Assembly: GCF_035594765.1 (NCBI RefSeq)
Contig: NW_026943824.1
Location: 8,875,451-8,939,450, forward strand
Length of the DNA: 64,000 nucleotides
Direction of reading: 5' to 3'
Origin: Anolis carolinensis
Taxonomy: Eukaryota
A program made the translations under genes and the position numbers. Below the pieces are notes generated by a model. That model saw only the letters and a program-made list of their open reading frames with translations, ran no database searches and was not told the DNA's origin. Below, in pieces: positions 22,401-61,418 of this stretch. Position 1 is the first letter of the stretch. The number at the start of each line of letters is the position of its first letter.

Positions 22401-24531
22401 CACCTCTTCTTCTTCTTCATGGTCTCTGTAGAATCAGATACATGGGTGACTACTGAGCTTGGAGATGGGTTCATGCCATGCGGGAAAGGAGCACAGCTCT
22501 TCCAAAGGCAGCATCCCTACCGGCTGTTAGGAATTGTGGGTGCTGAAGTCCAAAACACCAGAAGGGCCCATGTCTGCTCTAAGAGGAGACATCCCACTTG
22601 CAGCGGGGGATGCAACGGTGCTTCTCAGAAAAGAGTTCAAGCCGTAGTGACAGCACTAAGTGAATGACCCCTGATGTGATGGGGGAAATCTTGTCCTGTA
22701 AACTGGAAGGAAAAGCTGCAGTTCATGAAGATATGAGATACCGGACATTGGGGCGTATCTTGGCAGTAATTATGGAATAATTTGGAAGATTTTGTACATA
22801 CGCTTGTTCCATAGACGTAAAATGCTAGCGGTTAGATTCTGGAAGTTTTGTTTTATCCATTCCAGAAATGGTAGTGTTGGAAGAGCATTTTGGTCACCTT
22901 TCATCTTGAACAAGGCAGAACAGAGAATCTCCATTACTGACATTGTGTTGTCAAAGGCTTTCATGACTGGAATCACTGGGTTGCTGTGAGTTTTTTGGGC
23001 TGTATGACCATGTTGCAGAAGCATTTCACCCACATCTATGGTAGGCAACCTCAGAGATTGTGAGGTTTGTTGGAAACTTGGCAAGTGGGGTTTATATATC
23101 TGTGAAAGGTCCAAGGTGGAAGAAACTCTAAAATCAGGACAGTAAATAAAGAACAACAGAATGGAGGACACCTGGCTCGATGGCAGTACGTGTGAAAAAG
23201 CTCTTGGAGTCCTCATGGAAAACAAGTAAAACATGAGCCAACAATGTGATGCGGCTGCTAAAAAAGCCAACGGGATTCTGGTCTGCATAAATAGGGATAT
23301 AGCATCTAGATCCAGGGAAGTCATGCTCCCCCTCTATTCCGCCTTGGTCAGACCACACCTGGAATACTGTGTCCAATTCTGGGCACCGCAATTGAAGGGA
23401 GATGCTGACAAGCTGGAAAGTGTCCAGAGGAGGGCAACTAAAATGATCAAGGGTCTGGAGAACAAGCCTTATGAGGAGTGGCTTAAAGAGCTGTGCATGT
23501 TTAGCCTGCAGAAGAGAAGGCTGAGAGGAGACATGATAGCCATGTACAAATACGTGAAGGGAAGTCATAGGGAGGAGGGAGCAAGCTTGTTTTCTGCTGC
23601 CCTGCAGACTAGGATGCGGAATAATGGCTTCAAACTACAGGAAAGGAGATTCCACCTGAACATAAGGAAGAACATTCTCACTGTGAGAGCTGTTCAGCAG
23701 TGGAACTCTCTGCCCTAGACTGTGGTGTAGGCTCCTTCTTTGGAGGCTTTTAAGCAGAGGCTGGATGGCCATCTGTTGGGGGTGCTTTGAATGCTATTTC
23801 CTGCTTCTTGGCAGGAGGTTGGACTGGATGGCCCATGAGGTCTCTTCCAACTCTACTATTCTATATTCACTCAAAAAACAGGGGAATTCCATACAGGAAA
23901 CAATCAGGGCCAGCTAATCATCTCCCAACAAAGGATTCCCCCAGGAAGGACGCAGCCATAACCTGAAGCTTAAAGGCCATTGAATCAAGCTGGCCAAGTG
24001 CAACATTCACAACAGACAAGAGTTCTTTCTCCCACCCTGGACATTATTCCATAGATATATGAACCCTACTTGCCTAGTTTCCAACAGACTTCACAACCTC
24101 ATAGGCAGCCTGCCATAGATGCGGGCCAAACGTCAGGAGAGAATGCTTCTGGAACATGGCCATTTTGGTCAACTCCCATGTTGACCAAGGCACAATAGAG
24201 AAGCACCATATTGACATTAAGACAGAGCCAGGCCTGGGCTAACTTGGCCCCTCCATCCGGGTGTTTTGGACTCCAACTCCCACCATTCCTAACCGCTTAA
24301 GCGGCTGAGGGGGAAAAGCATGGGGCCTGAGGCTGTGAGGAATAGCGGGAGTGGGAGTCGAAAGCCCCCGGATGGAGGGCCCAAGTTGGCCCAGTCTTGG
24401 GAGTAAACACTCGGCCTCGACCCACCCGCGGATTCTCCGGTGTTGATCCAGTCCGGGTTGGCCAGGCTGGCGATGGCGAAGATGTCTGCGGCCAGAAAGA
24501 GGCATCCTGAGATGATGGTCAGTTTGTCCAT
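2755..24531 (-). CDS. MOSMO: Modulator of smoothened (C16orf52/ATTHOG), tetraspan membrane protein; join(24531-24426, 5815-5603, 2939-2755), 167 aa
   Basis: Three exons (106+213+185 = 504 nt) with GT-AG junctions give one [25 protein letters not shown]...[12 protein letters not shown], recognisable as vertebrate MOSMO. CpG island at exon 1. Confidence 0.96.
3496..3509 (+). promoter_or_regulatory. Candidate CTCF site in MOSMO intron 2
   Basis: CCACTAGAGGGAGC closely matches the CTCF core consensus. Confidence 0.5.
4399..4458. repeat. (TAA)n microsatellite, about 20 copies
   Basis: Read directly; similar tracts near 32131, 33980, 47242 and 63085. Confidence 0.95.
5603..5815 (-). CDS. MOSMO: MOSMO exon 2
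   Basis: ttcAG acceptor, GTAAGT donor, 213 nt, phase 1-1; [29 protein letters not shown]...WIAFTG. Confidence 0.96.
9562..9884. mobile_element. Tc1/mariner (pogo/Tigger-like) MITE, about 320 bp; 12 copies of this family in the window
   Basis: TIR CAGTAGAGTCTCACTTATCCAA, TA TSD. Other copies start at 25136, 25513, 26096, 26924, 27289, 32965, 35148, 40996, 52095, 57968 and 59429. Confidence 0.92.
11331..11585 (+). mobile_element. RTE/BovB LINE 3' fragment
   Basis: Encodes [26 protein letters not shown], typical of RTE C-termini. Confidence 0.85.
22300..22400 (+). mobile_element. Degraded DIRS tyrosine-recombinase fragment
   Basis: Peptide [21 protein letters not shown] resembles the DIRS YR motif (S.qrlS.WI..aI..aY). 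Confidence 0.5.
22943..24163. mobile_element. Penelope-like element with inverted ends, interrupted by CR1
   Basis: Left arm from about 22943 and inverted right arm at about 24020-24163. Confidence 0.7.
23160..23866 (+). mobile_element. CR1 LINE 3' fragment
   Basis: ORF 23233-23718 [21 protein letters not shown]...RRLRGD is the CR1 ORF2 C-terminus; ATTCTAT-type tail. Confidence 0.93.
24229..24399. mobile_element. Hairpin MITE beside the MOSMO exon 1 donor
   Basis: CAGGCCTGGGC...GCCCAGTCTTG ends with inverted arms. Confidence 0.8.
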
Positions 24532-24860
24532 GTCCTCCTCCTCCTTCTCCTCCGGCCTCAGGCGGGGGCCCCGGGCCGGGGGCTCCTCACAGCCGCGGCT
24601 CCATGGCGGGCGCCTCCCCCCGCCCGGAAGCAAAACCCGAGCCGCATGACCCGGAAGCAGAGGCTCGCTCGTTCAACCCTCGTCCTCAGCTCCCCCGCTC
24701 CCCCGCCCGCGCCTCACACTTTCCCCCAGACGGGGCGGGGCCACCACGATGACGATCGATCAGGGCGGGGCTTCGGGGGAATGGGCGGGGCTGAGGAGAG
24801 AACAGCTAAACGAGAGGGGAAACTAGACCCGAGGGAAGGGAGCCAGTGGGCGGGGCTTAT
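24400..24860 (-). promoter_or_regulatory. CpG-island promoter of MOSMO with GC boxes and ETS (CCGGAAG) motifs
   Basis: GC- and CpG-rich segment in an AT-rich background; GGGGCGGGG boxes near 24732; CCGGAAG near 24624 and 24651. Confidence 0.75.
24426..24531 (-). CDS. MOSMO: MOSMO exon 1
   Basis: ATG at 24531, [37 protein letters not shown] donor at 24425-24424. Confidence 0.96.
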
Positions 24861-37000: not shown

Positions 37001-40000
37001 TTAAGACAAATATACAAATGGAAGAGGACGGGTTAGGCTTAATACTCATCCAAAATGGGCCCTACCTCCAGATTGCAAGTCTAGTAGAGAAGAGCGCAGC
37101 AGAAAGAGATGGAAAACTGCAATCAGGTAAGGAAGTAGCCTATCCCTGGCTATGTTTAGTAAAAGCAAAATGTGATCTCACTCCAGTTGATCGAATGCTT
37201 TGTTGCCTTGGTGTGTCATTCAACCTTCTTTGCTACTCTCACCAGGGGATACACTTCTGAAGATCGGACATGCGAATGTTTTAGGATGGACCCTGCGAGA
37301 GCTCAGGCAACTTTTGCACAACACCCCCATTGGGACAGTTCTGCAGATCCAGGTTTACAGAGATTTTATGAAGCTGCCCAAGAGATGGGAAGCTGCTGTC
37401 AACAACATTCCTGAAATAAGGGGACCTGAGATCGAAGAGTAAGGATCTGCACATTCCCGAGAGGCATTCTGGGGGATCCTGGGCCAATATAGTTCCTTGA
37501 AGGGTGAATCTGGACTAGAACTGAGAGCCGAGTGGAAGAAGGCTTTGTCTCTATGTCTTTGGGGAGTGTTAGGAAAAATCCTGCAGAACCACAGCTGGTC
37601 AATACAGATCAGGACTCGGAAACTTTAGAGCAGGGTCTTCACATTTTTTAAGCCAAGGGCTGGTTCAAGGTCCCTCAGACTGTTGGGGGGTTGGACGATA
37701 GTTTGAAAATATCAAAGAACAATACAATATTTCAAATGAAGAACAATTTTAATCAACATAAGCTTACCAGTAAAAGGAACCCCGGTGGCGAAGTGTGTTA
37801 AAGTACTGAGCTGCTGAACTTGCACACCAAAGGTCCCAGGTTCAAATTCCGGGAGTGGCGTGAGCTGCCGCTGTTAGCTCCAGCTTCTGCCAACCTAGCA
37901 GTTCGAAAACATGCCAATGTGAGTAGATCAATAGGTACCGCTCTGGCGGGAAGGTAATGGCGCTCCATGCAGTCATGCCAACCACATGACCTTGGAGGTG
38001 TCTACGGACAACGCTGGCTCTTCGGCTTAGAAATGGAGATGAGCACCAACCCCCAGAGTCAGACATGATTGGACTTAACGTCAGGGGAAACCCTTACCTT
38101 AAGCTTACCCGTAATTTTAATGGGAAGTGTGGGACTGCTTTTGGCTGATGAGAGAGTCAAGTTAATTAGGATTGTTATTATGTATCTTCAAGTTGTTTCT
38201 GACTTAGGGCAATCCTAAGTTTAGGGCAAGGTCTTGGATGGTCATATCCGGGCCATGGGTCTTCATTTGGGGACTCCTGGTTTAAAGGGCGATGGTTCTA
38301 TTTCCCCATCACTTCTGTACTTGCATTAGGTCAATTCTGATTTTGAACAATTACGTTGTCAGGAGGTCTGTGCTTGTTTACATCCCTTTTTTAATCTCGC
38401 ATCTTTGTTTGGCAATCTAATTTCGGGGAGAAGTGAGGGCTGCATGCAGCTTATGTAATTCTCATCCTGGCATATTCCATATATGGATCAGTGCATTACT
38501 CAATATAAGACATCTTGCCTGTGGTGAAGGCACTATTTCCCCTTGTTTTTCCTGACTTGAGAAACTTCAAGTCATTTCTGGCATGAGAGAATTGGCCGTC
38601 TGCAAGGACGTTGCCCAGGGGACGCCTGGATGTTTGATGTTTTACCATCCTGTGGGAGGCTTCTCTCATGTCCCTGCATGGGGAGCTAGAGCTGACAGAC
38701 GGGAGCTCACCCCACTCCCCAGATTCAAACCACTGACTTTTCAGTCAACAGTCCTGCTGGTACAAGGATTTAACCCATTGCGCCACTGGGGGCTCAATTT
38801 TCCCACTGAAAAGTAGCAGATAAACCAACCAGCAGTAGGTTGCTGTGAGTTTTTCGGGCTGGATGGTCATGTTCCGGGAGAGAAAGCTTCTGGAACATGG
38901 CCATACAGTCCAAAAGATACACAGCAATTCCGTGATTCCAGCCATGAAAGTCATCGACACCAGCAATGTGTTGTCGAAGGCTTTCATGGCCAGGATCACA
39001 GGGTTGTTGTATGTTTTTCGAGCTGTGTGGCCATGTTCCAGAAGTATTCTCTCCTGACGTTTCACCCACATCTATGGCAGGCATCCTCAGAGGTGGCCTG
39101 CCATAGATGTGGGTGAAACGTCAGGAGAGAATCCTTCTGGAACATGGCCACACAGCCCGAAAGACATACAACGACACCAGCAATGGTTTTATACTAAAGA
39201 TAATGTGGCTAGATATTCTCTGCTATGTGGTCAGCTCTATGTAAGTTTCACAAAATCCACAAAATCATTCTGATAACTGTGGGAAGGGAGTATGGTTACA
39301 TTGGGGACCTCCAGCGAAGATTAACAATTGGGTTGGTTTTTGCAAGGAGCACTTCTCTTTGCGACAACCTCTGCTTGGTTTAAACAACATTTCAAGATCC
39401 ACATAGCATTGTTTCCAAAACTTGCAGTAGCATTGCCCTGGCTTTCTGTAAACACTCAGTGGAATTAATTTGTGTTTAACAGTCTTTCCTATCCTAGTGA
39501 TTAATGTGGACATTTATTACACCAAACAGATGTTTTCTCCATCTCCAAAGAATTGTATTGTTAAGTTACATAAGGAATGGAGAAAACAAGTAATGGAAAG
39601 CTCGGCTGGCAGACAAAACCAGCAGCTGTATTCTTCAAAAATTGGAAGCACTTCCTAGTAAAATACCTTGACTGGAGTCAGCTTTTTTATAAGGGCATTA
39701 TCACCAAACAGGAACACAGGAAGACCATTTTTCCAGCTCATGGTTGTCTGTATGTCTTTTCTACGGCTCTCTAACGTTTCAGAGAAGGATCGTATCTTGA
39801 GAAATAAGGTATTTTGTAAAAGTAATTGCATTGTAAATTTTAGGACATCAAGCTGTGCCAGCGAAGAAGCGTGGACAAGCAGCGAAGGCTCTGATGAGAT
39901 TGTTAGTGACCACCTTCCTTGCAGTGGTGGCAACGAAGAGGACAAAGTGGCACGCGAGTCCAACACAGTCTGCTTCGATGAGGACGGCATCTGCACTCGA

Positions 40001-47297: not shown

Positions 47298-50200
47298 CTT
47301 TATTTCTAGACTGCCCTTTCTCCCCGAAGGGACTCAGGGCAGTTTACAGACACAAGTTTGACTATAACATCTTAGGACCAGAGCAATATTCAGATGTACC
47401 TGTTCGGATGTAATCTTCCCAACCATATAGTCTGGACAGTATAAGGAATTGGAAAGGGCGTTCCGATAAGCTGCTGCATGCAAATTTTCAAGGACACCTG
47501 AACATAAAATAAAGGGCTTTTGCTATACCACAGAAATGACCCAAAGGTACTCATACCAAAACTGTCTATACAGAGCTTGCCTTGAACAATAAAGTAATAT
47601 CCTTGCACAAATGGACCATGTGATTTACTGAAAAAAGAGCACCAGTGTTTGCTGTCCAGTTTATTCTAAAGCAGGGGTGTGCAATAGCCCACAAAATATT
47701 GTTGGACTAAAATTCTCATGTCCTATAATGTCAAGAGATAGTGGGAATTGAATCCCAGCAACATTTGGAATTAATGAACGCTGGTGTAAGAAATATCTAG
47801 AATCGTCCTTTAGCCCATAGAAACTGTTTAGCAATTAAAGGGCTAAGGAAATTTCATAGTCCACAAAAGTAGTTTCTTTGAAAAACAGGTTTCTTTTCAA
47901 AAGCTGCTCCTGAAACTCTACTTGGCACATAGGAATGCTGTCCAAGTCCATAGCCCCACCTTCTTATGGGACGCATCAGAAATACCAAATTAAACATCCT
48001 TAATGGAAAATAACTTCAAATTTCTAAAAATAAAAAATTAGTACTAGAGGTTGTTCACAGGGTTTATTTTGTTAGTTTCACTAGTACTATCAGAGAAAGA
48101 CTATGATGCTATTGACACAAAACTAGTTCCTATTAAACAAAAAAGCAGATATGAAGCCCATTTTTAAAATCTCCCTGGAAGAAACCACTTCTGGCAAGGG
48201 CAATCTGCCCCTTCCTCCACCAAGAAGGAAGGAGATAGAAAAAAGCTTGGATAAAGAGAAAGGCGACGTCACACATTTGACCTCTGCCCAATATAACCTC
48301 GAACAGAAAAAAGCTTCTTTATCTTTGTTCACAAAAATTATTGTTGGGAGTCTAGCAGTTTAGGAACACTTACCAACTTGCGGGTTTTGAAAGGCAATTG
48401 CCTTGTCAATTCTTAAGCGGGGATTCACATCAGCTACTTCCCAGCGCCTGAATTCTGGAGCCGTAGTAACATTTATTAGGTATTCCAGGACAGTATCACT
48501 GAATAAATTAAGAAAAGTGATATATATTTAAGAAGACTCAAAACAATCTGTTATGGTTGAGCCTTCTGGCTCCGATACTAGGAGACGGGGTCGTAAGACT
48601 CCTCGTGAGTCAGACTCTTTTGAGGAGCGTGAAAGGAAACGGCTCCGGGACTTATTTGCAGAACCAACAGATGAGGACTCTTTTGAGGGTTTTACCGAGG
48701 GAATGGAGGAAGAAATGGTCAGCTCGGAGGAGGATGACATGGAGTGGACTCGTGTGAGGGAGGATTTGGGTGTCCCCGGTAATGAAAGCATGGGAGGCGA
48801 TTGGCGGGTTGCAGGATCAGACCCATGGACGGGCTGGAGGGATGGAGCGGGATCCACAGCTGGGGATGCTGTGGGGCGTAGTCAAAGGTGTTTTAGCTCT
48901 GATGAGGATGATGATGATGAGGCACCTGGGATTAGGATGGCAGCTGACAGCGATGATGAGTTTGAACTGGGATAAAATGGGGTTTAGGATCAATGTCTAA
49001 TTGCGTTGGGCAAGGTAATCTGGACGAACGCTTGGGCTCTTGTTGGGGAACTTCCTGAAGACGGGTGTGATTCGTTGCTGGATACGTAAGTTACTAAGGA
49101 CACTGGGCATAGACGGCGGGAGGTACTGTGTGGGGTTTTTCTGTGCAACTTGTGTAGCTTGGACCTCCGTCGTCTTTTTGACGGACATTAATTACCTACT
49201 CTGGATTGACGCTGGACTGACTGACTTCGACCCCGGATTATCCCTTCTGTGGCTATCGGTGGGACTTGTGGAATTCTAGACGTCTGCACTTGGCTTTCGA
49301 CCTCGGACCGGATTGAGACCCTGCTGACTGCCGTTACCCTGATTGATGTGCCTGGACCCGGATTTCGCTCGTTGCACGGAGGAGTAAACAGCCTGATTTA
49401 CTCATCTGTAGCTTTTGAGTAGCAGAGAGGAATCTGCTGCCAGTTTATTGTGTTCATTCTGACCTCTGTTAATCCTCTTTTGTTTGCTAATCTTGCCAGG
49501 CTGAAGTAAACACTTTTGATTTAATCCGGATTAAACTCCTGTTTAATCCGGTTTATTCTTTTGAACCTTTTTAGTTCAAACGGAGCTGTTTTTGTTACTT
49601 TTCACACTGAAGTCAAGTGTTTGCCTAATCCTTTGTTTCCTACGGGCATTTTCAGTTTTGTAACCTCAATAAACTGAGTTTTACTCTATTTGGTGGCGTT
49701 CTGTCTTTGACACAATCAGTGTTCCTTAAATGGTAAGATATGTCAAGGATAAGATGGTCTGCTGAAATATATAACCTTTTAAAATATGTGTATAGCATGC
49801 TGGTTTGGGCCAATGGGAGTCATAGTATAAAAATATAGAAGACACATATATGGGGAGCCAGGAGAAAAAAAAGTAAAATCTTTCTTCCAGATGTACAAAA
49901 AAGTAGCTAGGGAGCACTCAAATGTGCGGGGACATTTTAGTGTGAACTGCTTGAAGGTAGACACATACAATTGTCCCATGACCAGGGAAATCTGAGAATG
50001 TACTCGGGGAAAAGGAAAAGGAAATAGAAAGAAAGAAAGCACTTCTTATTTTTTTTTGTTTTGTTAATAAACAGATATGTGTCAAATTTCTGAGAATAAA
50101 ATAGGACTGCACAGTTCAAGAGAAGGAGAAAAAATCTTATTGTGCAATGACATTTTGTAGCTTCAAGGATTAGAAAGCTTGCAAAATGCCTTGAAAAGTG

Positions 50201-53200
50201 ATTTGCTATACATGATACTTACATATAGTCACGCAAACATTCAACCGAATAAACCATGTTCTCTCTGGTAGAAGTCACACTAAAGGAGAATTTAAGAAAG
50301 ATGTTTTCAGGATTTGAATGAGTTATCACCCAATCTACTGCATGTATTTGCAGTTAAGCTTCCTCTTTAGGTATAGTTTCTTTATCATCCTTAACTGACA
50401 TCCCATTTCCATAGCTTTCTTCAAAAGTCTCAAGTAATTACAGACCTTAGGCTACCACCAACAGCTTCAATGCCACGGGTTATCTTGAAGGAAGAGGCTC
50501 CTTTTGTAGTCTGCAGGAAAAAAACCCAACATTTTAAGCATCAACTGCTAATATGTCAAATTTCTTCTAAATAATTTTAACGTGACTATGAATCAGTAAA
50601 GAACATCAGTCAAGTTGGAAATCATTGGTTTATTTACCTCAGAAGTGGGAGAGTTCTTACTAGAGAAGATGTACAAAAATAGGGTGGGGGGCAAGTAGCA
50701 AAACTTTGAGCTTATCATTCTATTACAGACCATATTTATCCAATTCTGACATCAAAATAAACTAAGCTGTGTGTCTGTAATCATAGGTTGGCATAATTTT
50801 GACTTAACCTTGATTGGAAATTGCTTCTCCCCAAAAATGGCAGTCAGAAATAGACTTGTTTCTGCTTAACATAGTAGTAGGAATGTTCTGTTTATAGCAC
50901 TCCTACTGAACATTTACTACCCCTGTGAAAAGTAATGAAGCTGCACCTGCCCAATTTTCAATCTTTACAGTCATACTCTTTTTTTTGTTTCAGACTGGAT
51001 GTGACCATTTTTTTTACATCAGAGGCCACCAAAAATACAATTATGGAACCAAAGTCTGGTGGGATAGGGTTACAATGGAAAATTACAACCATTGGAGGCT
51101 AGTCAGGTGGGGGATACAAACATATTTTGGGGGACCACTTCTCTTTCAGAGGTCAAATCATGACTTGGATCATGCATGTGGTCCATGGGTTGCACACTCT
51201 CCTCGTTTTAGGGTCTTAGTTCTAAACAACATCCCAAATCTAACCTAATCAAAAGAGAAAAACTCACCAGGTTTGATGCAAGACGGAGCAGATGAGCGGT
51301 CCCCAAATTGGTGCCAGATTCATATCTGCTGCCTGCTTTGATGAAGACACCAATTCTTGAAGCTGGAGAATGATTTTCCAAAGAGGCAATCACCAAGCCA
51401 TTTGGCAGTTTTGTGATCTGCATTTAGGTGAAGAGATGTCAGATAAAATCACACTGTTCTTCTCTGATCTCTTCTAATTATAAGAAACAGTAAAACATAA
51501 CGTGATTTCGACTAACCTCAAGCTCTTGAGGGTGCAGCTGTATTTTTGCTCGTTCTGCTGCCGCAGAAGCTTCTGCTTTTGGTGCAACTTTGAGAGAATA
51601 CCATCTCCTCTAAACAAGAGAGCATGAACAATAAAAAGTTAAGGGTTTGACCAAATAGATTTCATTTTCATTAGTAAAATCAAGACTAACTAGAAAAGAC
51701 AATACTGGTAAGATAAGAAGTAGTAGGAAAAGGAAAGGCAGCAATAAAGATGGATGAACTCAATCAATAAAGTCACAGCCGTGAGTTTGCAAGACCCGGG
51801 AAGGGTTACTGAAGATATCTTGGATGTCTTTCGCTCATGGGGACATAAGTCAAAGGTGACTTGACAGTAATTAACAATGACATTTAATAATATATTAACT
51901 TCTGTTTGAACAATTTCTGCCTTGAGATCACTTCTGTTTCATTTCTTGTTAAAAATGTAACAGTTTTTAGGGAGAGGCATTTAGAATGTAGGTATTTACT
52001 TCATTTATACCCTGCCTTTCTCACCCCATGGGGGACTCAAGGAGCTCCAGAGCTTCTCAAATTACAAATTTCTGAATGCCACAGAATCATAATACAGTAG
52101 AGTCTCACTTATCTAAGACTCACTTATTCAAGGTTCTGGATTATCCAATGCATTTTTGTAGTCAATGTTTTCAATATATTGTGATATTTTGGTGCTAAAT
52201 TCGTAAATACAGTAATTACAACATAACATTGAACTACTTTTTCTGACAAATTTGTTGTATAATATAATGTTTTGGTGCTTAATTTGTAAAATCATAACCT
52301 AATTTGATGTTGAATAGGCTTTTCCTTAATCCCTCATTATCCAAGATATTTGCTTATCCAGGGCCCCTGCTGGCACAGTGTTCAGCGCTGAGCTGCTGAA
52401 CTTGCGGACCAAAAGGTCCCAGGTTCAAATCCCAGGAGCGGAATGAGCGCCTGCTGTTAGCCCTAGCTCCTGCCAACCTAGCAGTTTGAAAACATGCAAA
52501 TGTGAGTAGATCAATAGGTACCACTCCAGTGGGAAGGTAACGGCGCTCCATGCAGTCATGCCGGCCACATGACCTTGGAAGTGTCTACGGAAAACGCCGG
52601 CTCTTCGGCTTAGAAATGGAGATGAGCACCAACCCCTAGAGTTGGATACGACTAGATTTAACATCAGGGGAAACCTTTACCTATTCGCTTATCCAAGGTT
52701 CTGCCGGCCCGTTTAGCTTGGATAAGTGAGGCTCTACTGTAGTTGAAAGAGAATGCATGGCTGTCCAATTCAGCACCATTAATGTGACAGGGACTAATAA
52801 TAATACCAATAGTAATAATGTGACAAGGACTAATAATGTAGCTTTAAATGATAAATTGTCAATGGAAATGAGAGTGTTCGGGGGGGAAACTAATAGATCT
52901 GATTTTGATTTATACTGGTCAGTTTTTATTAAATATGTTCTAGAAAGTGAAAAAGGAAAACAATATAATCATGTTGGTCAGGAATTTTGGATATAACATT
53001 TGTTTAATGGTTTATTTATTTATTTGCTACATTTATATGCCGCCCTTCTCACCCTGAAGGGGACTCAGAGCGGCTTACAAATTAAATTTACATACAATAT
53101 TATATTATTAGGATAGTACAATACTGGCAATAAGTTATTATATTGTACTATATCAATATATTGTAATATTATTAGTAATATTACATGTAAAATATAATAT

Positions 53201-56388: not shown

Positions 56389-61418
<5,030 letters not shown>

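Follow-up and report, generated by a model that had tools for sequence, protein, structure and literature searches.

The locus studied here raises a simple question: to what protein does a frame of 140 codons belong that opens almost at the first nucleotide of a solitary long terminal repeat (LTR) in Anolis carolinensis, and what might that protein do? Our window, the whole stretch of 64,000 nucleotides that was analysed, contains no second copy of this LTR. The TG...CA ends and the 5-bp duplication CAATC on both sides agree with the solo LTR proposed in a first-pass annotation, and a contig joint that skips 1169 bases, the length of the LTR plus one duplication (one contig, in one of four public runs), fixes the ends of the LTR and reveals an empty allele. 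In the contigs of the four runs summed depth climbs to 1e5-2e6 within the LTR from ~35 on either side of it. A solo LTR that is both multi-copy and matched by an empty allele is likely a recent insertion. The proposed setting, an intron of a housekeeping gene, is likewise borne out: the exons to either side lie on the minus strand and align with residues 110-128 and 131-171 of UQCRC2, and the LTR is antisense to this gene. This intronic position is a single insertion and has no bearing on targeting. The features discussed below are collected in Table 1.

Table 1. Positions, within the window, of the LTR, its tail-coding frame and the surrounding features.
Feature	Position	Strand	Basis
UQCRC2 intron hosting the LTR	48499..50222	-	GT/AG ends; flanking exons match UQCRC2
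Left target-site duplication, CAATC	48544..48548	+	Single copy kept in the empty allele (joint skipping 1169)
Solo LTR, Anolis Ty3/gypsy family	48549..49712	+	1164 bp, TGTTA...TGACA; high copy number; presence/absence polymorphic
140-codon frame, C-terminal Pol/integrase tail	48553..48975	+	92-93% identity to P0019 and P0017 C-termini
Basic patches RRRGRK and RERKRLR, NLS-like	48580..48648	+	Predicted from sequence
Predicted TIM helix, residues 23-34, with L31/L34/F35 anchors	48619..48657	+	AlphaFold2; L31 and F35 invariant in 28/28
Eight-residue acidic linker with CK2-type site T39-x-x-D	48658..48681	+	Sequence; TIM linkers described as 8-16 residues (PMC9987994)
FxGF (F44-E-G46-F47)	48682..48693	+	F, G and F fixed in 28/28 tails; x changed once
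GATAAAA, TATA-like	48971..48977	+	Overlaps the ORF stop codon; promoter role putative
AATAAA polyadenylation signal	49668..49673	+	Near the LTR 3' end; one in the LTR
Right target-site duplication, CAATC	49713..49717	+	Sequence

Several observations concern the insertion and its surroundings in their own right. The LTR lies 50 nt from the UQCRC2 splice acceptor (48499-48548), near the likely branch-point region, and as a polymorphic element it could alter UQCRC2 splicing between alleles. Within its non-coding part, joints in other LTR copies skip 50-95 bases at 49075-49206, which represents subfamily length variation, and an 11-pair inverted repeat (49526-49551) precedes the poly(A) signal by ~115 nt. 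A motif look-up over the whole LTR found no TATAAA; a bacterial promoter scan was set aside as irrelevant to Anolis. Between 9554 and 59761 the window also holds a ~330-bp repeat, present in at least 10 copies and in either orientation, as well as a tRNA-headed SINE-like repeat in four copies, and the frames at 24289-24672 (-), 36868-37260 (+) and 56877-57194 (+) are ones that we take to resemble exons of MOSMO, PDZD9 and CRYM.

Protein searches with the window frame returned two relatives of nearly its own length and seven longer ones, eight of the nine named Anolis, and several of them carry the frame as the C-terminus of a Ty3/gypsy Pol with reverse transcriptase (RT), RNase H, integrase and SH3 (GPY/F) domains. 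P0019 and P0017, with whose tails it shares 92-93% identity, both bear RT and integrase. Among the 41 proteins of the family set, which includes the cluster members listed (15/46, 15/75 and 4/4), the SH3 end is present in 32, and in 29 of these Pol stays in frame across a linker and on into the LTR as far as FxGF, the linker being 33 residues long in 28 and 31 in one; the other three shift frame or stop early. Of the remaining nine proteins, five stop short of the SH3 end, and the other four are gene models that are chimeric or consist of the tail alone. The YLDD, DDE and HHCC patterns are kept in all 14 full-length Pol proteins that bear the tail. Given this continuity, the close identity of the tails and the intact Pol patterns, the window frame is the C-terminal tail of an integrase, encoded by the 3' LTR and passively copied into every LTR. 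The observations of the first-pass annotation fit this reading well: its frame starts at LTR nucleotide 5 and stops within GATAAAA at 48971, its basic patches and DEDSFEGF (48670-48693) are present as described, its derivation from an LTR retrotransposon now takes the form of the end of a Ty3/gypsy Pol, and two of the checks that it suggested, for full-length elements extending into the frame and for retention of the frame, both come out positive in the same 29 of 32 proteins. The solo copy itself is probably not translated, since its frame lies upstream of the presumed promoter, marked by the TATA-like box, and runs antisense to UQCRC2.

Beyond the family the frame is hard to trace. Pfam assigns no domain to the whole window frame (P0001); a search of 1.84 billion representatives returned only two family members and P0011, a fibronectin-repeat-like protein that we take as an unrelated chance match; the ESM Atlas gave no usable match to the Anolis tail; and metagenome and viral contigs yielded no relative of the element. 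Separately, the gene models P0004, P0007, P0010, P0012, P0200 and P0201 join these LTRs or Pol frames with pieces of LINEs or with host genes (by name OGFRL1, PCBD2 and KCNQ5), probably through annotation read-through of insertions, and chromodomain-bearing sister families appear in gene models as well.

To which lineage does this Pol belong? Pfam finds the order protease-RT-RNase H-integrase with GPY/F-SH3 in P0008, P0009 and P0041, the protease match being partial. We took as relatives the best 120 of 1432 matches to the family integrase, of which 3 belong to the family itself and 117 to others, and in these best matches precomputed domain assignments place a chromodomain (PF00385) in 110 of the 117, whereas Pfam finds none in P0003, P0005, P0006, P0008, P0009 and P0041. 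Between the end of SH3 and the LTR junction lie 42 residues in the family versus 106 in its nearest relative (four rows compared); residues preceding that junction suggest a putative polypurine tract. Trees were built with FastTree from the 99 of 126 rows covering RT to SH3 and with IQ-TREE from 19 chosen rows, all drawn from the search with the family integrase, with no non-chromovirus outgroup. In both, a Podarcis family that bears a chromodomain is the sister group of the Anolis family (FastTree 99; IQ-TREE 99/99), and the pair falls inside a squamate group (support 96; 90/96). The phylogeny of RT, RNase H and integrase thus puts the family among chromodomain-bearing elements, as expected of a chromovirus, and on this evidence the family is a chromodomain-less derivative of the chromovirus lineage, the simplest reading being that the chromodomain was lost on the Anolis family branch. 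The element resembles the vertebrate Sushi-type chromoviruses in domain order, in tree position and in its AATAAA near the LTR 3' end, a trait that the relevant part of PMC3601003 ascribes to Sushi-type LTRs; it differs from them in having no chromodomain and in encoding ~137-142 integrase residues inside the LTR.

Some chromodomain-bearing sister families have tails of their own. P0047/P0185 (Podarcis) and P0053/P0057 (Anolis) read ~95-116 residues into the LTR, with no FxGF, and RRSAR[LI], or a sequence close to it, forms the end of the tail in 5 of 15 and 17 of 30 proteins, respectively; we presume that these ends resemble the HMGN nucleosome-binding core. Squamate LTR-encoded tails may thus carry differing chromatin motifs.

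The Anolis tail in turn contains a short stretch that resembles the host ligands of the LEDGF integrase-binding domain (IBD) and related TNDs. As defined in those portions of PMC9987994 that treat them, TND-interacting motifs (TIMs) consist of an obligate helix with F/V/L/I anchors and an acidic linker of 8-16 residues that is often CK2-phosphorylated; FxGF matters especially for LEDGF and HRP2 ligands, and several other TNDs need no more than the helix and the acidic linker. In an AlphaFold2 model of the tail, based on a six-row alignment, the helix at residues 23-34 is the sole segment with pLDDT 70-90, the rest being low-confidence coil; eight residues, four of them D or E, link F35 to F44; and FxGF is present in all 34 family sequences that reach the position. 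The resemblance first noted is therefore fuller than it had appeared, with helix, acidic linker carrying a CK2-type site, FxGF and disordered surroundings laid out as in the TIMs of JPO2/CDCA7L, IWS1, MLL1 and JIL-1, from which the Anolis motif differs in being carried on a retrotransposon integrase and in that its binding is predicted. The reading of DEDSFEGF as [DE]-x-E-x-F-x-G-F holds for FxGF and fails at the third place, where the window copy has D: the strict consensus published for LEDGF ligands, D/ExExFxGF (PMC8022399), occurs in 13 of the 34 family sequences, and the remaining 21, the window copy included, have D. Fly JIL-1 is described as binding a LEDGF domain through DFxGF (PMC6877644).

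A structural counterpart was found for a sister-subfamily protein, P0009, whose 37-residue peptide matched PDB 6EMO, the complex of the LEDGF IBD with JPO2 motif 1, with identity at 12 of 20 residues overall and at 11 of 15 core residues (E 0.092), in a search prompted by prior knowledge of the JPO2 motif. The entry ranked second of nine matches, behind a designed repeat protein, and was the best non-designed one. This match came from one of five PDB searches; the other four, run with the whole of P0001, a three-row profile and the window and Podarcis peptides, retrieved no TIM complex. Matches to a syntaxin-binding protein, designed proteins, haemagglutinin HA2 and EsxB (E 0.16 or worse) were put down to chance. 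We also considered that the motif was captured from host CDCA7L, but no longer homology to it or to any other host protein was seen among the 1.84 billion representatives, which makes mimicry likelier than gene capture. Taken together, the layout and the JPO2 match lead us to posit that the motif probably binds a TND, most likely that of LEDGF or HRP2.

How far selection has kept the motif can be judged from 28 distinct tails, after exclusion of four that were frameshifted or short and the merging of two duplicates. L31, F35, F44, G46 and F47 are invariant in all 28, while identity of the tails between subfamilies is only 63-86%, as against 91-97% in the Pol core, so that the FxGF conservation anticipated at first pass is found, and changes in the linker are I/L, S/T, D/E, A/T or E/A exchanges or single events. 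The fixed anchors have to be read against a background in which 59 of 113 tail columns are invariant, which puts the chance of five fixed anchors at ~0.04, and against a sample of annotated proteins (15 of 46 and 15 of 75 members in the two larger clusters) that is biased to open frames. At acidic sites, 7 of 16 shared changes are D/E exchanges, versus 15% expected (p 0.005); conservative changes are equally enriched among singletons (14/28) and shared changes (23/50), a control that did not discriminate. Half of the ORF variants (5 of 10, among 40 of 107 variant rows listed) are synonymous (p 0.04-0.11), one of them inside the motif, and among the rows listed none of the indels with at least a 10% share falls in the ORF, versus six in the LTR's 3' portion; a few low-depth contig joints skip parts of the ORF. 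We regard this conservation of the tail motif as suggestive only, and the U3 DNA may be constrained as a promoter. A second block, residues 96-113 (48838-48891), is as conserved as the FxGF motif, with 4 changes in 18 columns, and might represent either a motif of the protein or an element of the U3 DNA.

These numbers bear directly on the alternative that survives best, in which pol merely lost its stop before a purine-rich U3, FxGF arose incidentally in an acidic disordered linker, and the conservation reflects promoter DNA and young copies. In favour of such passive read-through, sister families extend into their LTRs without FxGF, and the length of the frame by itself is within chance, a stop-free stretch of at least 140 codons occurring in 21% of 3000 random LTR-like sequences. 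The tail moreover diverges as fast as the internal linker, 2.4% of 200,000 shuffles contain FxGF by itself, and the tests of selection are weak. What makes this account unlikely in our judgement, though a serious competitor, is the combination of parts: a hydrophobic residue-F pair followed after 6-12 residues by FxGF, a pattern chosen post hoc, occurs in only 0.04% of the same number of shuffles, the core of the sister-subfamily peptide matches JPO2, the D/E exchanges and the synonymous variant inside the motif point to constraint on the protein, and the same pattern recurs in just one other of the 117 relatives listed, again behind the integrase.

That other relative is P0067 of Podarcis muralis, the only one among the 117 matches listed (137,932 residues) in which a hydrophobic residue-F pair, an acidic linker and [FL]xGF occur together, a pattern set after P0067 was known. 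P0067 has it twice, both TIM-like motifs lying at residues 1091-1138 directly behind the chromodomain and outside the LTR, ahead of its inferred junction. Both are kept in all 10 members of the 12-member cluster (P0067 and P0161-P0171) that reach the tail, with R, W or Q as the x of FxGF. The predicted fold of the Podarcis tail has a mean pLDDT of 51 and only a four-residue helix, before the second motif, and ESM Atlas matches to it scored under 0.8 throughout. A tree uniting the Anolis and Podarcis motif families was rejected (p-AU 0.013) in a comparison whose group was named after the first tree and whose branches are long, and independent gain of the motifs in the two families is the likelier history on these data. 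In the P0067 chromodomain E takes the place of the W-x-G-Y aromatic found in most relatives, and [DE]x[DE]xFxGF was also seen in the gag region of 3 of the 117 relatives, again among the matches listed.

Returning to the Anolis family, we suggest the following sequence of events. Pol reads through SH3 and the 33-residue linker into the 3' LTR and so adds an LTR-encoded tail at the chromodomain position; the tail would stay on mature integrase, disordered except for its one helix, with an acidic linker that CK2 could phosphorylate. The helix-acidic-FxGF motif is predicted to bind the IBD of LEDGF or HRP2, and through this binding the integration complex would likely be held at transcribed chromatin that carries H3K36 methylation, which would bias insertion accordingly. 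That the tail replaces the chromodomain, binds LEDGF/HRP2 and thereby likely tethers integration to such chromatin is a proposal that we hold tentatively, at somewhat less than even confidence.

The second alternative accepts the ligand and parts company only at the last step: the motif would serve nuclear retention or chromatin docking, or bind another TND protein such as IWS1, TFIIS, Elongin A or MED26, and insertions would be broad. Basic NLS-like patches adjoin the motif, helix and acidic linker are enough for several other TNDs (PMC9987994), and in the Ty1 work, as far as the pertinent section of PMC7459421 goes, recruitment of integrase to Pol I genes yields no integration there. Against it stand the description of FxGF as special to LEDGF/HRP2 ligands and the tail's occupation of the position of known targeting domains, and we consider a ligand that leaves site choice untouched rather improbable.

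The coding sequences of HIV nef and MMTV sag overlap U3, and a separate accessory protein of this kind, as the first-pass annotation had envisaged, would start from the LTR's own ATG, also in solo LTRs. An in-frame ATG does stand at LTR nucleotide 5, and the gene models P0002, P0019, P0004, P0007 and P0010 start or read through there, but this idea can be set aside as highly improbable, because nef and sag are separate genes whereas the Anolis frame forms the last part of pol, precedes the TATA-like box and owes its ATG to the att end of the LTR, TGTTATG fitting the general consensus TGTTRNR (given in the LTR section of PMC3601003) and the Met recurring at the same junction in sister families that have no FxGF motif.

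How does the preferred reading, an integrase tail that mimics a LEDGF/HRP2 ligand, compare with known systems? Its closest parallel in design is the plant CRM group A, in which pol extends into the 3' LTR and encodes a putative targeting domain, the CR motif, at the chromodomain position (described in parts of PMC3059260 and PMC3605345), much as the 3' LTR of the Anolis family supplies an integrase tail where relatives have a chromodomain. The CRM elements are plant and centromeric, with no partner named in the portions of those papers concerned, whereas the Anolis motif resembles a host ligand of an active-chromatin reader; we assume a shared design and no membership, the nearest relatives being squamate and the CR motif having been compared by description only. 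Among yeast elements, the passages of PMC7459421 on Ty1 describe a short motif in the C-terminal integrase tail that binds a host factor and sets the integration site. Unlike the Anolis element, Ty1 and Ty5 are copia elements whose targeting motifs are not LTR-encoded, and the Ty1 partner is AC40. For Ty5 integrase, the partner is Sir4. HIV integrase, in turn, binds LEDGF through folded domains and not through an FxGF peptide, and the Anolis element is Metaviridae-type, not a retrovirus. The likeness to lentiviral integrase-LEDGF/HRP2 tethering lies in the same predicted host domain and in predicted gene-body integration (compare the tethering part of PMC9987994), and the lentiviral integrase site on LEDGF is reported to overlap that of MLL1 IBM2 (PMC8022399).

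On a wider scale, we offer as a more speculative possibility that squamate Ty3/gypsy elements have at least twice evolved LEDGF/HRP2-ligand mimics on their integrase tails, switching from heterochromatin reading to the active-gene tether of lentiviruses by a different binding mode, in Anolis with an LTR-encoded JPO2-like motif that replaces the chromodomain and in Podarcis with two motifs behind a chromodomain that was kept. A targeting module at the C-terminus of integrase is of a known kind; its TIM-type version may be new, as searches of open-access papers and preprints brought up no integrase of a retrotransposon that bears FxGF or a TIM, nor any LTR retrotransposon of a vertebrate that is tethered in the LEDGF manner. 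A 2023 Drosophila paper raises the use of LEDGF by fly LTR elements and, in the passage concerned, states that no data support it (PMC10018349). The Anolis family offers a concrete test, with a defined 25-residue peptide, a solved host complex in 6EMO and, in the chromodomain-bearing Anolis family, a natural control within the same genome. If the proposal is true, retrotransposons and lentiviruses would have converged on one host domain, and LTR-encoded integrase tails would be a place of targeting-module swaps in animals as in plants.
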